A DNA stretch of 19,303 bases from a virus, in the UHGV virus genome UHGV-0121367. One strand, given 5' to 3'. The translations under genes and the position numbers were made by a program. A model generated the notes under the pieces. That model did not search any database. It was not told the origin of the DNA and was given only the letters and a program-made list of their open reading frames with translations. Below are positions 12,022 to 19,303 of this stretch, one piece after another (within the stretch, counting starts at the first letter, position 1; each line of letters begins with the position of its first letter).

Positions 12022-15000
12022 ATGGCTACAGAGAAAGTATTAAAGGGGCGCAAAGGCGGCAAATCCAGTTCACGAACTCCTACCGAACAGCCTGATGATC
12101 TGCAATCTGTAGCGAAGGCAAAAATCCTCGTTGCGCTTGGGGAAGGGGAGTTCGCAGGGCAGCTAACCGGCAAAGATATCTACCTGGACGGAACGGCGCT
12201 GGAGAATGCCGACGGTTCCCAAAACTTCAGCGGCGTGACGTGGGAGTTTCGCGCGGGGACGCAGGCTCAAAAATATATTCAGGGTATTCCCGGTACCGAA
12301 AACGAAATCAGCGTGGGAACTGAGGTATCAAGCGCTACAGCCTGGACGCGCACGTTTACCAATACGCAGCTTTCAGCAGTTCGTCTGCGTCTGAAATGGC
12401 CCTCGCTTTTCAAACAGGAAGACGACGGAGATCTGGTGGGTTACTCGGTCAATTATGCGATTGACCTGCAGACGGACGGCGGCACATGGCAGACGGTACT
12501 CAATACCAGCGTGACCGGCAAAACGACGTCTGGTTATGAGCGCAGCCACCGTATCGATTTACCGCAAGCTGGCAGCACCTGGACAATACGTCTGCGTAAG
12601 ATTACCTCTGATGCCAACAGCGCGAAGATCGGCGACACGATGACGCTGCAGAGCTTCACCGAGGTGATTGACGCCAAGTTACGATATCCAAACACAGCGC
12701 TACTCTACATCGAATTCGATTCAAGTCAGTTTAACGGCTCTATCCCGCAGATCTCCTGCGAGCCCCGCGGCCGTGTTATCCGCGTTCCAGATACCTACGA
12801 CCCTGAAACCCGCACTTATAGCGGTACATGGACCGGTGCGTTTAAGTGGGCATGGACGGATAACCCTGCGTGGATTTTTTACGATCTGGTTGTTTCTGAC
12901 CGGTTCGGCCTCGGGCACCGTTTGACCGCTGCGAATATTGATAAATGGACGCTTTATCAGGTTGCCCAGTATTGTGATCAGATGGTACCAGACGGCAAAG
13001 GGGGCAACGGTACCGAACCACGTTATACCTGCAACGTGTACATCCAGGACCGAAACGACGCTTATACAGTCCTGCGTGATTTTGCGGCCATATTCCGTGG
13101 CATGACGTACTGGGGAGGCGATCAGATCGTTGCTCTGGCCGATATGCCCCGAGATGTTGATTACAGCTACACGCGCGCCAACGTTGTTGGCGGTCGCTTC
13201 ACCTATTCAAGCAGCACCACGAAAACCCGCTACACCACAGCGCTGGTTTCATGGTCAGACCCGGGTAACGCTTATGCCGACGCGATGGAGCCGGTATTTG
13301 AGCAGGCGCTGGTAGCGCGATACGGCTTCAATCAGCTGGAAATGACAGCCATCGGCTGCACCAGGCAGTCAGAAGCGAACCGAAAGGGGCGCTGGGGCAT
13401 TCTCACCAACAACAAGGATCGCGTTGTTTCGTTTGATGTCGGGCTGGACGGAAACATTCCGCAGCCTGGCTACATCATCGCCGTGGAAGACGAGCTGCTT
13501 TCCGGAAAGGTTATGGGCGGCCGCATCAGCGCCGTTAACGGTCGCGTTATCAAACTTGACCGCGTAGCTGATGCAGCACCAGGTGATCGCCTTATTCTCA
13601 ACCTGCCTTCCGGAGCGTCGCAGAGCAGGACCATTCAGGCCGTGAACGGGGAATCAGTCACAGTCACCACGGCATACAGTGAGACGCCACAGGCCGAAGC
13701 TGTTTGGGTGGTTGAATCTGACGAGCTTTACGCGCAGCAATATCGCGTTATCAGCGTTACGGATAATAATGACGGAACGTATTCGATTGCTGGCGCTTTG
13801 CACGATCCGGATAAATATGCGCGTATCGATACCGGTGCCATTATCGACCAGCGGCCAATAAGTGTAATTCCGCCCGGTAATCAGTCCCCGCCAGCTAATA
13901 TCGCGATCAGTTCGTTTTCTGTCGTTCAGCAGAATATCAGCGTTGAGACCATGCGCGTCAGCTGGGACCAGGCGAAAAATGCTATCGCGTATGAGGCACA
14001 GTGGCGTCGCAATGACGGGAACTGGGTGAATGTGCCGCGCAGCTCCACCACGTCATTCGATGTTCCGGGGATTTATGCAGGACGCTACCTGGTTCGCGTG
14101 CGTGCCATCAATGCCGCCGAAATTTCATCTGGGTGGGGCTATTCAGAAGAGAAAACGTTGACGGGTAAAGTGGGAAACCCACCGAAGCCGGTTGGCTTCA
14201 TCGCTTCTGAAAACGTGGTATTCGGTATCGAGCTGAACTGGGGATTCCCGGCGAATACCGAAGACACGCTGAAGACGGAAATTCAGTATAGCCTGACCGG
14301 TACCGAGGACGATGCAATGCTGCTGGCCGATGTGCCTTACCCGCAGCGCAAATATCAGCAGATGGGCCTTAAGGCTGGGCAGATTTTCTGGTACCGCGCG
14401 CAACTTGTTGACCGGACCGGTAACGAATCGGGGTATACCGACTGGGTGCGCGGGCAGGCGAGCACCGATGTTTCAGAAATTACGGATGCAATATTCAAAG
14501 AGATTCAGGAAACAGAGGTTTTCAAAAACCTGATCGCCACTGTAGATGAGGATACCAAAAATATTGCCGAACTGACTGATGCGGTCCGGGAAAATGCCGA
14601 CGCGCTGGCAGCTGCAATTATTGACGGGAAACAAACTGCAGAGGATTTGAAATCCAGTACTGAAAATCTGGCAGCAGCGATTCGTGAAAATGCAGATAGT
14701 CTTGCCGCGGCGGTTTCATCTAACAAACAGACCGCTGAAGCTATTATTGCCAATTCTCTCGCGATTACTGATGTCGTATTGCGTCAGACCGCCCAAAACG
14801 GCGCTAATACGGCGCAATTCGAGCAACTACGGGAAGTTGTAGCGACAGAAACTGAAGCTCGCGTGACCGATGTTACCCGTCTCGAAGCTAAGACGAAGGA
14901 TAACGCGGCGGGCATCACTGAGGTTCGACAAGCACTTGCTGATGAAACTCAAGCCCGCGCAACTGCTGTCGATCAGCTTACTGCTGCTACGGACGCGGCG

Positions 15001-16479
15001 GGTAAGGTTGGCGCACAGAACAGCGCGGATATCACATCACTTACCCAAGTTGTTACAGATAGCACCTCTGCGGCCGCTTCACGATTTGATGAGCTTAGCG
15101 CTGCTACTGCCAGCGCTGCGGGCGGCATTCAGAGTAATGCCATCGCTCTGATTAACAACACGTTAGCTCAGGTTAGCCAGCGCAACACCATGACGGTTCA
15201 GTACCTGGACAACAAGGCCGGGATCGAGCGCACACAGGAAGCCATAGCCAACGAGACCGAAGCCCGTGTTGCTGATGTACTGCGCCTTGAAGCTACTACA
15301 GAGCACAACGCAGCTGATATCATTGAAGTGCGTCAAGCTATGTCTGACGAGTCTCAAGCAGTCGCGACGCGTCTTAATGAACTCAATGCTGCTACTAAGA
15401 CTGCCGACTCTAAAGCGGACGCGGCGGGTAAGGTTGGCGCACAAAATGCAGCGAAAATCACAGCGCTTGAGCAGGTTGTGACAGATACAGAATCAGCTAC
15501 AGCGCTGCGACTCGACGAGCTTTCTGCTGCTACTAAAGCTGCCAGCGATAAAGCAGATGAGGCGGAACAAGCCAGTACTCGCAATGCCGCAGAAATCAGC
15601 GAGTTGGATCAAGTGGTCACGGATTTGGACAGCGCCACAGCGTTACGTTTTGACGAAATCTCAGCAGAAATCGCAGATCAGAGCAGTAATGTGGGCGTCA
15701 TTAAAGGAGGCATTCAGAATAACGCGATTGCAGTAATTCAGCAGACGTTAGCGCAGGTGAATCAGTCGCAGCGAATGAGTGTGCAGTACGGCGACAATAA
15801 AGCAGGGATCGAACGTGTCGATAACGTGATGGCTGATGCAAGCCTGGCTGTGGCTGAGTCACTCAAAACGCTGGATTCAAGTGCAGGAGGTGGTACTGCA
15901 AATACGACTGATTTTGCAAAAACTCTTGCGGATTTCACGCAGGCGTCAGCAACGCGGATTAACTCGCTGACAGTGTCAGTTAATGGGCAGACGACAGTAA
16001 TTGAACAGAACGCACGGGCGGTTGCAGATATCAGCGGAAATCTGAATGCGATGTACAGTATTAAAGTCGCTATCGACTCGAACGGACGGCAATACGCTGC
16101 CGGAATGGGTATCGGAGTCGAAAATACGCCAGCAGGTATGCAGTCGCAGGTGCTGTTCCTGGCTAACCGCTTTGCTGTTATGACTCAGGCCGGTGGTGCG
16201 GTCACGCTGCCATTCGTTATTCAGAATGGCCAGGCCATTATCAGGGATACAGTCATTGGCGACGGGACCATAAGCAATGCAAAAATTGGCAATTACATCC
16301 AGTCGAACAATTATGTTGCCGGCTCTGTTGGCTGGAAACTGGATAAGTCCGGGACGTTTGAGAACTACGGTTCGACAGCTGGGGAGGGAGCCATGAAGCA
16401 GACCAACCAGACAATCAGCGTCAAGGATGGCAACAACGTTCTGAGAGTGCAGGTTGGCCGATTAACGGGGGTGTTCTGA
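12022..16479 (+). CDS. J: Tail tip attachment / host specificity protein J (central tail fibre), enlarged relative to lambda J
   Basis: 1485-aa ORF. The N-terminal two thirds are collinear with lambda gpJ motifs (...YPNTALL...QISCEPRGRVIRVPDTYDPETRTYSGTWTG...YCDQMVPDGKGG...). A long Ala-rich repeat region follows, and the C-terminal region is unlike the lambda LamB-binding end. Confidence 0.95.
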   Translation: MATEKVLKGRKGGKSSSRTPTEQPDDLQSVAKAKILVALGEGEFAGQLTGKDIYLDGTALENADGSQNFSGVTWEFRAGTQAQKYIQGIPGTENEISVGTEVSSATAWTRTFTNTQLSAVRLRLKWPSLFKQEDDGDLVGYSVNYAIDLQTDGGTWQTVLNTSVTGKTTSGYERSHRIDLPQAGSTWTIRLRKITSDANSAKIGDTMTLQSFTEVIDAKLRYPNTALLYIEFDSSQFNGSIPQISCEPRGRVIRVPDTYDPETRTYSGTWTGAFKWAWTDNPAWIFYDLVVSDRFGLGHRLTAANIDKWTLYQVAQYCDQMVPDGKGGNGTEPRYTCNVYIQDRNDAYTVLRDFAAIFRGMTYWGGDQIVALADMPRDVDYSYTRANVVGGRFTYSSSTTKTRYTTALVSWSDPGNAYADAMEPVFEQALVARYGFNQLEMTAIGCTRQSEANRKGRWGILTNNKDRVVSFDVGLDGNIPQPGYIIAVEDELLSGKVMGGRISAVNGRVIKLDRVADAAPGDRLILNLPSGASQSRTIQAVNGESVTVTTAYSETPQAEAVWVVESDELYAQQYRVISVTDNNDGTYSIAGALHDPDKYARIDTGAIIDQRPISVIPPGNQSPPANIAISSFSVVQQNISVETMRVSWDQAKNAIAYEAQWRRNDGNWVNVPRSSTTSFDVPGIYAGRYLVRVRAINAAEISSGWGYSEEKTLTGKVGNPPKPVGFIASENVVFGIELNWGFPANTEDTLKTEIQYSLTGTEDDAMLLADVPYPQRKYQQMGLKAGQIFWYRAQLVDRTGNESGYTDWVRGQASTDVSEITDAIFKEIQETEVFKNLIATVDEDTKNIAELTDAVRENADALAAAIIDGKQTAEDLKSSTENLAAAIRENADSLAAAVSSNKQTAEAIIANSLAITDVVLRQTAQNGANTAQFEQLREVVATETEARVTDVTRLEAKTKDNAAGITEVRQALADETQARATAVDQLTAATDAAGKVGAQNSADITSLTQVVTDSTSAAASRFDELSAATASAAGGIQSNAIALINNTLAQVSQRNTMTVQYLDNKAGIERTQEAIANETEARVADVLRLEATTEHNAADIIEVRQAMSDESQAVATRLNELNAATKTADSKADAAGKVGAQNAAKITALEQVVTDTESATALRLDELSAATKAASDKADEAEQASTRNAAEISELDQVVTDLDSATALRFDEISAEIADQSSNVGVIKGGIQNNAIAVIQQTLAQVNQSQRMSVQYGDNKAGIERVDNVMADASLAVAESLKTLDSSAGGGTANTTDFAKTLADFTQASATRINSLTVSVNGQTTVIEQNARAVADISGNLNAMYSIKVAIDSNGRQYAAGMGIGVENTPAGMQSQVLFLANRFAVMTQAGGAVTLPFVIQNGQAIIRDTVIGDGTISNAKIGNYIQSNNYVAGSVGWKLDKSGTFENYGSTAGEGAMKQTNQTISVKDGNNVLRVQVGRLTGVF
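14584..14745 (+). repeat. Short 96-bp (32-aa) direct repeat in J encoding RENAD(A/S)LAAA...KQTAE
   Basis: cgggaaaatgccgacgcgctggcagctgca at about 14587 and cgtgaaaatgcagatagtcttgccgcggcg at about 14683. Confidence 0.6.
14849..15830 (+). repeat. Diverged in-frame tandem repeats inside J (unit about 405-426 bp, two to three copies)
   Basis: Near-identical 23-mer gcggcgggtaaggttggcgcaca at 14995 and 15421 (period 426 bp). Related blocks gaaactgaagctcgcgtgaccgatgtta (14849) and gagaccgaagcccgtgttgctgatgta (15253). A third partial copy around 15560-15830 repeats the ...IQ(S/N)NAIA(L/V)I..TLAQV.Q...M.VQY.DNKAGIER... module. Confidence 0.8.
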
Positions 16480-16783: not shown

Positions 16784-17457
16784 TGGCCGAATTTGGCGCG
16801 ATGATATTAATGGATAACGGGAATCCCTTTGTAACGCCACAATCAACGCCTTTCTGTCTTTACGGGAAGTATACCTTCAATTCATCCGCGAATGGCAGTT
16901 CTCAGCAGGTTGCTCAAAATATCGCTTTAAACGCTGATTACCCAGTGATGGTTTTTATCAAAACCACCAATACAGCACAGCCCACTCCGGTTATGTCTTA
17001 CAGGAACGGCGGTAATGTGTATGTTGCTGGTGTTAATCCCTACAACCAAAGTTTCACTTTAACGGCGTACGTTTTTGCCATATTCCCGCAGATATTACCG
17101 AAATGGGGTTTGGCAATATGGGATGCGAGCGGAAAGCTTGTGTTAACTAATGAGTCCCGTGTGCTATCAGACCTGCAGACGGTTGGCACGCCTGGTGCAA
17201 ACGGCGGGATAAATATTGACCAGACGCTGAGCGGGTCATGGGCCGTTGCACCTGCTCAGTTGGGTCAGACCATCATTGTGAATAATTCAACCCAGCCTCC
17301 GACTATCTACACGATAAATGCTTATTCTTCATGCAGGTTTGACGGGGCCAATACGAGGATAAACGCAGGGGGGACCTCCACTGGGGCAGGTTCACCTGGA
17401 GGGGGAACGAATACTGGCATTTCATTAACCGCCATAAATACAGCGGCCTATGATTGA
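16783..17457 (+). CDS. Hypothetical protein (224 aa) with Gly-rich C-terminus, apparently built from two copies of the module in the upstream ORF
   Basis: Start overlaps the upstream stop (TAATG). The N-terminus MAEFGAMILMDNGNP parallels MAYGIQTWDASGNP of the preceding ORF. The internal segment KWGLAIWDASGKLV...LSGSWAV repeats the same motif. Confidence 0.72.
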   Translation: MAEFGAMILMDNGNPFVTPQSTPFCLYGKYTFNSSANGSSQQVAQNIALNADYPVMVFIKTTNTAQPTPVMSYRNGGNVYVAGVNPYNQSFTLTAYVFAIFPQILPKWGLAIWDASGKLVLTNESRVLSDLQTVGTPGANGGINIDQTLSGSWAVAPAQLGQTIIVNNSTQPPTIYTINAYSSCRFDGANTRINAGGTSTGAGSPGGGTNTGISLTAINTAAYD

Positions 17458-17507
17458 TTGATCGTTTTTAGCGATCAATAACATAATATTGATCTATCCA
17501 ATCAATT
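17457..17507. promoter_or_regulatory. Operator-like cluster of ATTGAT inverted repeats with three GATC sites, upstream of the small lipoprotein gene
   Basis: attgatcg (17457-17464) and cgatcaat (17472-17479) are perfect 8-bp inverted repeats with a 7-nt spacer. A second pair is attgat (17488-17493) and atcaat (17501-17506). GATC occurs at 17460, 17473 and 17491. The region is AT-rich and intergenic. Confidence 0.45.
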
Positions 17508-17568
17508 ATACCCACCAGAATTGTATTGGTATCGTCTAAGATACTGAATTCCTCTGGATACTATCAAA

Positions 17569-17802
17569 ATGAGAAAACTGATTATCTGCATGGCAGGCGC
17601 TGTCATGCTTACAGGATGCGCTGGCGTAATTGAGAAACAGGAACCAGTTTGCAGCGGCACTGCAATCGTTGGCGGTCAGGAAACTACGGTTCAGATTTAC
17701 GGTGTGCGTAAACAAAACAACCAGACGCAGTACCGGGCTGGATATCCTTTCAGCTGGCGCTGGGTAAGTGCGAATACATTTACCGAAACAACCTGCAAAT
17801 AA
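17569..17802 (+). CDS. Small outer-membrane lipoprotein (77 aa); candidate Cor/Llp-like superinfection exclusion protein
   Basis: N-terminus MRKLIICMAGAVMLTGC has a canonical lipobox LTGC with Ala at +2. Two further Cys (C28, C76). Size and position (downstream of J, before the tail fibre) match Cor-type exclusion lipoproteins of lambdoid phages. The functional call is inference. Confidence 0.6.
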   Translation: MRKLIICMAGAVMLTGCAGVIEKQEPVCSGTAIVGGQETTVQIYGVRKQNNQTQYRAGYPFSWRWVSANTFTETTCK

Positions 17803-17823
17803 CCCACTACGCTTAAACATAAA

Positions 17824-17846
17824 CCTCGCCCCGGCGGGTTTTTTAT
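17824..17846 (+). terminator. Probable intrinsic terminator after the lipoprotein gene
   Basis: GC-rich imperfect hairpin (cctcgcc / ggcggg) followed by ttttttatt at 17839-17847. Confidence 0.5.
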
Positions 17847-17863
17847 TATCTGGAGAAAATAAA

Positions 17864-19000
17864 ATGATCTATACAACCGGCACTATCGCTGTCAGCGGTA
17901 ATACTCTGACCGGCACCGGAACTAATTTTACTGCTGCGGGTTCATTAATTCGGAACGGCTGCACTGTTATTGCACTGACAAATCCGGCACAGGTATTTCA
18001 GATTACTGCAATTAACAGCGCTACGAGTCTCACTGTAACGCCTGCTGCCAGCCCAGCAATTCCAGCCGGTACGAAATATTCAATTCTGCTGAGTGATAGT
18101 CTGAGCGTTGATGGGCTGGCGCAAGATATTGCCGAGACGTTCACTCTGTACCAGCGCAATATGAGCGGATTCGCTGACGTAATGAACGGCACAGGGGACG
18201 TGACAATTACGATTAACGGTGTGGCTGTGACCGTTCCTGGTCAGAAATCGCTAGCGAAGAAAGGGGCAAATAAGGACATTACGAGCCTGACCGGGTTAAC
18301 TACAGCGCTTAGTATCGCTCAGGGCGGCACCGGTGGCAAAACAGCAGCAGAGGCCCGCACATACCTCGGTTTAGGAAGTAGTGCGACAAAGGATGTCGGA
18401 ACTGCGGCAGGGAATGTTATGCAGGTGGGAGCTTTTGGGGTTGGTGCTGCTCTCGAAAATAAGCCCACAGATGCCAGTTCATCCTTCATCAGTGATGCTG
18501 CTGGCAATACTCTGTGGGCTCCTGCGAATGGCTGTGGGTTTCAGAGTTCCTACACCGAGCAGCGAATTGCGCAGCTGTGGATTACTTACGGTGGTGCGAT
18601 GTTCAGCCGTTTTCTAACAACCACTGATGACCCTCAAACACCAAAATCATCAGTGCCGTGGGCGCAGATGCAGTCTGCAGGTACATCGGACATAAATTTC
18701 AAGAAGGTTACTGGAGAACTTAATTTAGAAGTGTCTCTGGCCAACATCGTGGCAATGGATTTTAAGACCTTCTACTACCTTGCTGATGAAGAGAAAACGA
18801 TACGCCGAGGTGTTGTTGCTCAGGAACTGGAAAAGATAGATCCGCAATATGTTCACTCGGCTGAGGAGTCGGGGAAAATGACCCTAGACCTCAATCCTCT
18901 GGTGCTCGATGCGCTGGCGGCAATCAAAGAGCTGGCAATCCGCGTCAGCGCATTAGAGGGCGACGCTAAATCTCCGGCTTCTGGCTCATCCGCTGGTTAA
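17864..19000 (+). CDS. Tail fibre protein with a C-terminal intramolecular chaperone (Peptidase S74-like auto-cleaving) domain
   Basis: ATG at 17864 preceded by GGAG at 17852-17855. The upstream ATG at 17768 would overlap the lipoprotein gene and terminator. The C-terminal approximately 100 aa carry S74-type hallmarks: GTSDINFKK (Ser-Asp...Lys at the predicted cleavage site, Ser about residue 275), RRGVVAQELEKIDPQYV, and a terminal helical ...LDALAAIKELAIRVSALE. Confidence 0.82.
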   Translation: MIYTTGTIAVSGNTLTGTGTNFTAAGSLIRNGCTVIALTNPAQVFQITAINSATSLTVTPAASPAIPAGTKYSILLSDSLSVDGLAQDIAETFTLYQRNMSGFADVMNGTGDVTITINGVAVTVPGQKSLAKKGANKDITSLTGLTTALSIAQGGTGGKTAAEARTYLGLGSSATKDVGTAAGNVMQVGAFGVGAALENKPTDASSSFISDAAGNTLWAPANGCGFQSSYTEQRIAQLWITYGGAMFSRFLTTTDDPQTPKSSVPWAQMQSAGTSDINFKKVTGELNLEVSLANIVAMDFKTFYYLADEEKTIRRGVVAQELEKIDPQYVHSAEESGKMTLDLNPLVLDALAAIKELAIRVSALEGDAKSPASGSSAG

Positions 19001-19303
19001 ACAGTGAATCTGCGGGCATATCCAAGCGAACATCGATCCAGCTGTTCGCCGGTACGTCCATCGGTTCACCTTTGGTTTTGATGATTTCACCTTCATCGCT
19101 CAACATGTATTTGTGCTTAAACAGGCGGATTGTCAGCTCGCCGTTGTCGGTTTGCACTGCCTCAACCACGCCCAGTTCTCCCATGCCGCCTGGGTCCATT
19201 GGCGGCAGTATCTGCCATCCCTCAGAAGCCAGGCCTGCCGAACCGGCGAGCACGTAAACACCGACGTCGAGACGAAAAAGAGTTATTCCCTCCGCCTCAG
19301 AGT
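18966..19303 (-). CDS. Hypothetical protein, minus strand, running off the window edge and overlapping the tail fibre 3' end by 35 nt
   Basis: ORF track 18966..19253 (-) starts at a GTG. The same frame stays open upstream to the window end at 19303, so the true start is probably outside the window. No family recognised. Confidence 0.4.
   Translation of the reverse strand, partial: SEAEGITLFRLDVGVYVLAGSAGLASEGWQILPPMDPGGMGELGVVEAVQTDNGELTIRLFKHKYMLSDEGEIIKTKGEPMDVPANSWIDVRLDMPADSLFNQRMSQKPEI

Follow-up and report, generated by a model that had tools for sequence, protein, structure and literature searches.

The viral genome UHGV-0121367 was analyzed over a single stretch of 19,303 nucleotides (nt; hereafter the window), with attention to cor, a small lipoprotein gene carried as a moron, and to the inverted repeats with GATC sites that lie directly upstream of it. 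The cor moron probably has an upstream OxyR operator holding three Dam sites (GATC), at which competition between Dam and OxyR would set heritable ON and OFF states. OxyR would bind two half-sites, here called H1 and H2, only when the GATCs are unmethylated; bound OxyR would keep Dam off the GATCs, each state would tend to be inherited, and a population of lysogens would split into cor-ON and cor-OFF cells. That OxyR binds, that methylation affects its binding, which way control runs, and that cor is phase-variable are all inferred from the sequence and by analogy with characterized operators. The cor gene and Dam/OxyR switches are each known, and their combination at cor appears to be unreported; a literature search, with older subscription papers outside its reach, returned nothing tying cor to OxyR, Dam, or GATC, and a paper on TldR and one on T1 lysogeny do not deal with the cor promoter. 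The elements of the predicted operator are as follows.

17457-64 and 17472-79: perfect inverted repeat, ATTGATCG and CGATCAAT, with 8-nt arms and the 7-nt loop TTTTTAG
17473-80 and 17487-94: inverted repeat, GATCAATA and TATTGATC, from the repeat search
17488-93 and 17501-06: inverted repeat, ATTGAT and ATCAAT, from the repeat search
17460-17463: GATC1, Dam site in the left arm of H1
17473-17476: GATC2, Dam site in the right arm of H1, 13 nt from GATC1
17491-17494: GATC3, Dam site at the left edge of H2, 18 nt from GATC2
17461-17475: H1, predicted promoter-distal OxyR half-site, ATCGTTTTTAGCGAT, 8/10 against ATAGnTnnnAnCTAT, centre at about -75, carrying GATC1 and GATC2
17492-17506: H2, predicted promoter-proximal OxyR half-site, ATCTATCCAATCAAT, 7/10, centre at about -44, starting 31 nt after H1 and abutting the -35
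17483-17497: alternative compact half-site (H1+22), ATAATATTGATCTAT, 8/10, giving with H1 a 37-nt site at 17461-17497

The gap between gp23 and cor (17458-17568, 111 nt) has a G+C content of 31.5%, as against 52.8% for the whole window, and 5 of the 12 ATTGAT/ATCAAT matches of the 19.3-kb window sit in 17453-17506. Five such matches were reached in none of 20000 composition-matched shuffles of 17440-17568. The inverted repeats described by a first-pass annotation of the window, including the perfect 8-nt arm pair, were recovered by the repeat search and exceed the shuffled expectation, and its three Dam sites were located at 17460, 17473, and 17491. Three GATCs in the gap are only mildly unusual by themselves (144 of 20000 shuffles); the signal is their placement inside the repeats and their conservation, rather than their count. 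An extra ATTGAT at 17453-58, which overlaps the gp23 stop codon, falls outside the predicted site.

Conservation of the element was assessed in the gp23-cor gap of nine phages, in the 150 nt upstream of cor in 23 bacterial loci (one genome per species), and in the closest 80 loci from IMG/VR. The resulting footprint reads ATTGATCG-N7-CGATCAAT-N8-ATTGATCT-N5-ATCAAT-TAT, with N7 and N8 spacers that are essentially random. Throughout 37 loci from at least 10 genera, the blocks are fixed, the spacers are free, and the site starts at a constant -108 from the cor ATG. The footprint was observed in Escherichia, Enterobacter, Trabulsiella, Buttiauxella, Dryocola, Citrobacter, and Kluyvera, even at loci whose Cor has no more than 51-56% identity. 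Of the closest 80 IMG/VR cor loci, 68 have kept all three GATCs, and HK225, mEp213, and phi80 also have three. Among the cor loci compared, the element was absent from T1, from Stx2-phage 86, and from one Pseudocitrobacter locus. The first-pass annotation had named absence of the palindromes from homologous gaps as an observation that would count against it; instead, the blocks are kept across genera with variable spacers. As judged from these alignments, the repeats are a conserved cis-element, a strict phylogenetic footprint that did not arise by chance.

A small number of natural variants have lost GATCs. In the HK022 lineage, an exact 4-nt loss has removed GATC1, leaving ATTG in register and H1 at 8/10, and a G-to-T change has turned GATC3 into TATC at a position outside H2, so that one GATC remains in HK022. 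Two IMG/VR loci carry a single-base change of GATC to GATA, which in one of them raises H1 to 9/10. All of these low-GATC alleles, of the HK022 type and with GATA, keep OxyR half-site scores of 7-9/10. They are candidate locked variants, and from their sequences look like locked-ON alleles, though they represent few independent events; in this they resemble the 'ameliorated' opvAB sites (PMC4856963). Other arrangements were also seen. Erwinia cor loci (L011:1150-1170, L027, and L035) have other perfect palindromes, TTCGATCG-GAA-CGATCGAA and TTAGATCT-TAT-AGATCTAA, with two GATCs 9 nt apart, and cor loci of Serratia and Aeromonas (L010, L024, and L026) have ATTGAT-N9-ATTGATCG-TTGCAAA-CGATCG.

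The element is not confined to cor. A scan of IMG/VR for the palindrome alone returned at least 120 loci; among the matches listed, to which all module counts given here refer, 66 adjoin cor, 1 adjoins gtrA, and 53 adjoin other genes. The third GATC lies exactly N14 from the pair in 107 of 120 matches, and once the cassette is oriented, cor follows it in 65 of 66 cases. Lambdoid siphoviruses carry the cassette with cor; it also lies directly upstream of a tail-sheath gene in contractile-tail phages (myovirus), and is found in P22 gtr and in Mu. Its presence across siphovirus, myovirus, P22, and Mu argues for a host factor rather than a phage factor, and binding of the element by a phage-encoded factor is unlikely.

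The three-GATC cassette, with -35 and -10 at fixed distance, also precedes many small genes in IMG/VR loci L043-L161; examples are L083:6997, L072:5676, L081:3337, L143:939, L086:4254, L084:2193, L048:6790, L130:1370, L151, L091, and L154. The cargo includes 39-40-aa (amino acid) membrane peptides, a 46-49-aa protein encoded just upstream of the tail-sheath gene, Cys-rich membrane proteins, a Ner-like repressor, and 76-100-aa membrane proteins; the cargo gene of L048 occupies the cor slot before the tail fibre. For 8 of 10 non-cor cargo proteins tested, no family was found in PHROGs.

The whole window was scanned with the Toledano consensus for OxyR, ATAGnTnnnAnCTAT-N7-ATAGnTnnnAnCTAT (maximum score 20). 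Positions 17461-17497 came out alone at the top with 16/20, ahead of a next-best score of 13; on the same scale, the validated sites of Mu mom and agn43 scored 13 and 14, in the expected registers. The registers of H1 (17461) and H2 (17492) were set by the consensus scan together with the non-cor modules. In the H1+31 register, where the half-site opens with the ATC of GATC3, each of the 106 oriented modules scores between 6/10 and 8/10 and 25 of 41 non-cor modules reach 8/10, whereas the compact second half-site scores 3-6/10 in other modules and its left arm is not conserved in relatives; a score of at least 7/10 is reached by only 0.2% of the 15-mers of the window. Across 104 distinct modules, the non-GATC positions specified by the consensus carry 1.53 bits, versus 0.58 bits at 'n' positions. 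T6 and A10 of H1, inside the palindrome loop, are conserved at 91% and 87%, and A10, C12, A14, and T15 of H2 (A47, C49, A51, and T52 of the module alignment) at 90-100%. Because the H1+31 register is conserved, the consensus positions are informative, and the compact register is poor elsewhere, the operator is predicted to be H1 plus H2, the extended arrangement used by gtr and opvAB for reduced OxyR. A third half-site such as that of gtr C was sought at 17505-19 and 17515-29 and is absent, with scores of only 3-4/10. Conserved blocks, the OxyR consensus, and validated operators all strongly favour the operator-like, methylation-sensitive reading of the first-pass annotation; in place of its two ATTGAT pairs, two OxyR half-sites are probably the working units.

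Four known Dam/OxyR systems were compared with the element. P22 gtr contains OxyR(A), ATTGATCG-GGTAACAA-CGATCAAT, and OxyR(C), ATTGATCG-CTTGTAT-CGATCAA, with arms as in 17457-79: the arms of ATTGATCG-N7-CGATCAAT are identical, and in both systems two GATCs lie 13 nt apart, a pair present in Mu mom and agn43 as well. The strings CGATCAAT(T)AACAT and ATCAA(A)TTATAC are shared by gtr and the cor gap, the predicted half-sites of cor would be spaced in the extended manner that gtr shows and that is typical of reduced OxyR, and in each case the genes downstream belong to prophage lysogenic conversion, with products that change the cell surface so as to counter superinfection. In gtr, GATC1/2 and GATC3/4 are covered by OxyR(A) and OxyR(C), and gtr AB and BC probes bind OxyR(C199S) in gel shifts, with binding abolished by Dam methylation (PMC2909390). 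Unlike cor, gtr has three half-sites (A, B, and C) and four GATCs in two pairs, with a tetramer at AB (ON) or BC (OFF); cor has two predicted half-sites, three GATCs, and one predicted tetramer position, at a spacing of 31 rather than 32.

Mu mom and agn43 each have three GATCs in one OxyR tetramer site, as is predicted for the cor element. The GATC spacing of Mu mom (18+13) is the exact mirror of that in the window (13+18, or N9+N14), and the spacing of agn43 (19+13, or N9+N15) is near it; a hand alignment with one gap gives about 73% identity between the agn43 site and the window element taken as its reverse complement. The position relative to the promoter differs. The agn43 operator is downstream of the start site, the Mu mom operator is further upstream with its GATC pair proximal, and OxyR represses in both, whereas at cor the GATC pair is distal and H2 abuts the -35, an activator-like position. 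That position recalls Salmonella opvAB, in which OBSC is centred at -75 and OBSD at -43; OBSD, a 7/10 match that includes a GATC, sits just ahead of the -35 and is occupied when opvAB is ON (PMC4856963). The cor half-sites are centred at about -75 and -44, and the output of opvAB is likewise phage resistance at a cost. Unlike cor, opvAB has four half-sites and four GATCs, with binding that alternates between A+C and B+D; cor is without the second, upstream pair. Regulation of both gtr and opvAB is independent of the oxidation state of OxyR (PMC2909390, PMC4856963).

The first-pass annotation took the gene downstream of the repeats to be independently expressed, and the signals listed here agree with it: cor has its own predicted promoter, with an extended -10 downstream of the repeats, and its own terminator.

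17507-17512 (+): weak -35-like TATACC, directly after H2 and 17 nt before the -10
17527-17535 (+): extended -10, TGgTATCGT (hexamer TATCGT at 17530-17535; TG at 17527-28), with a predicted start site at about 17543
17569-17802 (+): cor, 77-aa prelipoprotein, predicted to block the receptor FhuA; signal peptide at 17569-17616, lipidated Cys17 at 17617-17619
17825-17848 (+): intrinsic terminator, CTCGCCCCGGCGGG (17825-38) followed by a T-run, closing the cor transcription unit

The phi80 record FN582354 presents the moron with a -35, an extended -10, a start site, a lipoprotein signal peptide, and a terminator, and annotates no operator. Its -35 signal is the equivalent of 17505-17510, its minus_10_signal falls on the extended -10 listed above, and the start site at about 17543, with the half-site centres at about -75 and -44, was obtained by transferring the phi80 annotation through a gap-free alignment. 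The -10 is conserved in relatives in the form TGnTATTGT, and the same terminator is annotated in the phi80, mEp213, and HK225 records. In the non-cor modules, TTGATG, TTGATA, or TTGAAT is followed after 17 nt by TACAAT or TAACAT at the same positions.

Of the two possible directions of control, we lean slightly towards the one in which the OxyR-bound, unmethylated operator is the ON state, on the grounds that the site abuts a weak -35 (activator geometry), that H2 resembles OBSD of opvAB, and that the GATC-loss variants keep both the OxyR consensus and an intact cor. The precedents of mom and agn43, where OxyR represses, point the other way. Lysogens of the phi80 type are described as converted to phage resistance, which is hard to reconcile with a sizeable share of OFF cells unless the ON state prevails. 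Further observations weigh against the switch as proposed, or against its details. The N15 site is degraded (one GATC, no H2), yet N15 cor works in lysogens. The conserved start-to-start spacing is 31 as opposed to 32 in gtr and opvAB, although 31 also fits Mu mom best; in cor loci, H2 reaches no more than 6-7/10; and the compact 16/20 register (spacing 22) is specific to the window variant. The conserved ATTG/CAAT flanks lie outside the 15-mers and are unexplained by the classical OxyR consensus, and the start site is a putative one, taken over from a GenBank annotation.

The compact site bears on an explanation in which OxyR binds as an ordinary redox regulator, cor being changed on peroxide stress, perhaps to limit iron entry through FhuA, with the GATCs as by-products and no heritable switching. 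Its geometry in the window variant is the one preferred by oxidized OxyR; moreover, GATCG is one base from GATAG, the extended OxyR arm, and a natural GATA variant exists. Yet it is the extended, reduced-OxyR type of register known from gtr and opvAB that is conserved, and not the compact one, and the GATCs are kept at exact spacing (in 68 of 80 loci, and across cargo types) beyond what the OxyR consensus needs. We consider redox control alone unlikely. Somewhat less likely again is a different GATC-sensitive factor, whether another regulator of the LysR type such as HdfR, SeqA acting on hemimethylated DNA, or some further protein. Boxes of the LysR type have the generic form ATC-N9-GAT, the ATTG/CAAT flanks exceed the classical OxyR 15-mer, and the 31 nt between GATC1 and GATC3 make three helical turns, which suits SeqA; the 9-nt spacing in Erwinia is that of the HdfR-bound GATC-2/3 of Salmonella std, and the Erwinia variants may use an HdfR- or SeqA-type protein. 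The arms at cor, however, are identical to those of gtr sites with demonstrated OxyR binding, the positions conserved outside the GATCs (T6, A10, C12, A14, and T15) are positions of the OxyR consensus, and the geometry is common to three further OxyR/Dam systems. In addition, HK022-type variants drop GATC and keep the consensus, which would be unexpected for a pure GATC reader such as SeqA.

It is very improbable that the inverted repeats serve as structure, whether in RNA, as a hairpin that ends the late gp23 transcript on its 3' side and affects its processing or stability, or in DNA, as a cruciform or as a linker for recombination where mosaic segments join. RNA of 17445-17515 does fold to -18.5 kcal/mol (z=-4.8 versus shuffles), the element starts at the gp23 stop codon, and phage homology breaks nearby. 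A good RNA fold is nevertheless expected from nested palindromes, the arms never covary, and no Rfam family was matched. Non-cor modules in which H1, H2, and the GATCs are preserved lack the long-range pairing of 17449-60 with 17499-510; the spacers diverge freely while the protein-contact positions stay fixed; and the cassette is always oriented to the downstream gene, with -35 and -10 at fixed distance. That the repeats have no function, and were kept only by recent common descent of the cor module, has next to no probability: many of the loci are close relatives (39 of 49 Escherichia coli matches are at least 99% identical), but the blocks persist at loci with 51-56% Cor identity and randomized spacers, and the cassette precedes unrelated cargo genes in unrelated phage types.

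Other signals were considered at the repeats and rejected. A scan of 17440-17520 detected no intrinsic terminator, the hairpin being A+T-rich and followed by AACAUAAU, with no U-run. The FNR half-site TTGAT occurs five times, with pairs N11 and N7 apart rather than the N4 of TTGAT-N4-ATCAA, and CRP (TGTGA-N6-TCACA) is represented by a single poor half-site. For IHF (WATCAA-N4-TTR), the TTR part would land in the variable spacers; matches to the Fur box (11/19 and 8/14 by hand) are not conserved; and the bases relevant to a DnaA box or to a DNA-invertase crossover half-site (TATCCAA) vary among relatives. A sigma-70 promoter, TTGATC-18-CATAAT at 17458-87, would have its -10 in a spacer that is random among relatives.

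On the evidence of its sequence, the lipoprotein is Cor, an FhuA-blocking exclusion protein, and as such is already known biology. The translation begins MRKLIICMAGAVMLTGC, with the L-T-G-C lipobox at residues 14-17 and further Cys at 28 and 76, so that the 77-aa lipoprotein with LTGC lipobox and two extra Cys claimed in the first-pass annotation is borne out; G16, C17, C28, and C76 are invariant in an alignment of 10 Cor sequences. By tblastn, the window Cor is 100% identical over 77 aa to phi80 Cor, and equally to Cor of mEp043, mEp213, HK225, and HK140; identity is 79% with HK022 Cor and 62% with N15 Cor. It matches phrog_1119, 'Cor superinfection exclusion protein', over its full length (E=7e-37), and no Pfam family was found for it. 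Of 5426 complete E. coli genomes, 49 contain the cor unit, under the PGAP name 'phage exclusion lipoprotein Cor', and 39 of the 49 match at 99% identity or more. Cor reportedly inactivates FhuA and excludes T1, T5, and phi80-type (FhuA-dependent) phages (PMC3594210; also a preprint), and FhuA blocking by the window protein is taken from this literature on the identical phi80 protein.

The first-pass annotation had called the protein Cor/Llp-like, which is right for Cor and does not extend to sequence similarity with Llp. Like Cor, T5 Llp is a lipoprotein of similar size that targets FhuA; unlike Cor, a prophage moron product, it is encoded by an early gene of a lytic phage, and no sequence similarity was detectable here. 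A phmmer search of PDB with a cut-off of E<=1 returned no chain (presence of an Llp chain in the PDB set was not checked), and the Pfam search with Cor matched no family. A 2026 preprint reports 18-25% identity between Cor and Llp, with a similar predicted fold.

By gene content and homology, the region is the cor moron of a prophage tail module of the phi80/N15/HK022 type. The gene order is J (1485 aa), a 100-aa gene (phrog_557), a 224-aa gp23-like gene (phrog_425) ending at 17457, cor, and a tail fibre gene starting at 17864. The position between post-J genes and tail fibre that the first-pass annotation regarded as typical is indeed that of phi80, N15, HK022, HK225, and mEp213, which share the order gp21(J)-gp22-gp23-cor-stf with the window. 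DNA of 17300-17900 is 99.3% identical to HK225 and 97.8% to mEp213, HK140, and mEp237, and across the entire window, head and tail genes of mEp237, HK225, and N15-like type are combined in a mosaic, with interphage homology breaking near the gp23 end and the repeat element. In E. coli ECCRA-119 (NZ_CP029242.1), a prophage with an identical cor region adjoins yciI-tonB; its J is much shorter (3183 nt), so the window prophage is a different mosaic that shares the cor module.

The window J (12022-16479, +) has 1485 aa as against 1159 aa for the annotated phi80 gp21 and 1060 aa for J of a related E. coli prophage. It contains an internal duplication of about 190 aa between the FNIII-A and tail-tip domains, in which the motif ETEARV.DV.RLEA...GGIQ.NAIA...TLAQV...VQY.DNKAGIER occurs twice in translation; no DNA tandem repeat was found by TRF. 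A 95-aa open reading frame at 18966-19253 (-) overlaps the end of stf (17864-19000). It corresponds to the C-terminal part of a tail fibre, without an N-terminal part of its own, and matches PF25670 (E=6e-14, profile positions 46-133); in a related E. coli prophage, a gene for a 'recombinase family protein' lies about 2 kb past cor. Together, stf and the opposite-strand frame could be an invertible tail-fibre segment; no inverted repeat of at least 14 nt was found within 17800-19303, 19303 being the end of the window. A weak Rfam match to isrK, a small RNA of Salmonella prophages, spans the cor 3' end and the terminator (17764-17844, +); at 17.4 bits versus a gathering score of 50 (E=0.26), it is probably noise.

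Cor is among the best-known receptor-blocking exclusion proteins, but little work has addressed its expression from the prophage. A cell pays for a blocked FhuA in ferrichrome uptake. If the proposed switch operates, cells with blocked FhuA would resist T1, T5, phi80, and colicin M but take up ferrichrome poorly, while the other cells would remain FhuA-active; an epigenetic switch would then explain how lysogens bear the FhuA cost in only part of the population. A receptor-masking protein would join Ag43, O-antigen glucosylation, O-antigen chain length, and Mu Mom among the surface traits under Dam/OxyR control. More tentatively, and with somewhat greater doubt than confidence, we suggest that cor is phase-variable and that the cassette of about 80 bp (H1-N16-H2, -35, -10, and three GATCs) is a portable bet-hedging promoter of several temperate phage families. 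In that case it would be attached to many small, uncharacterized surface or membrane cargo genes, and the cassette flags dozens of unannotated small prophage genes as candidate phase-variable conversion functions.

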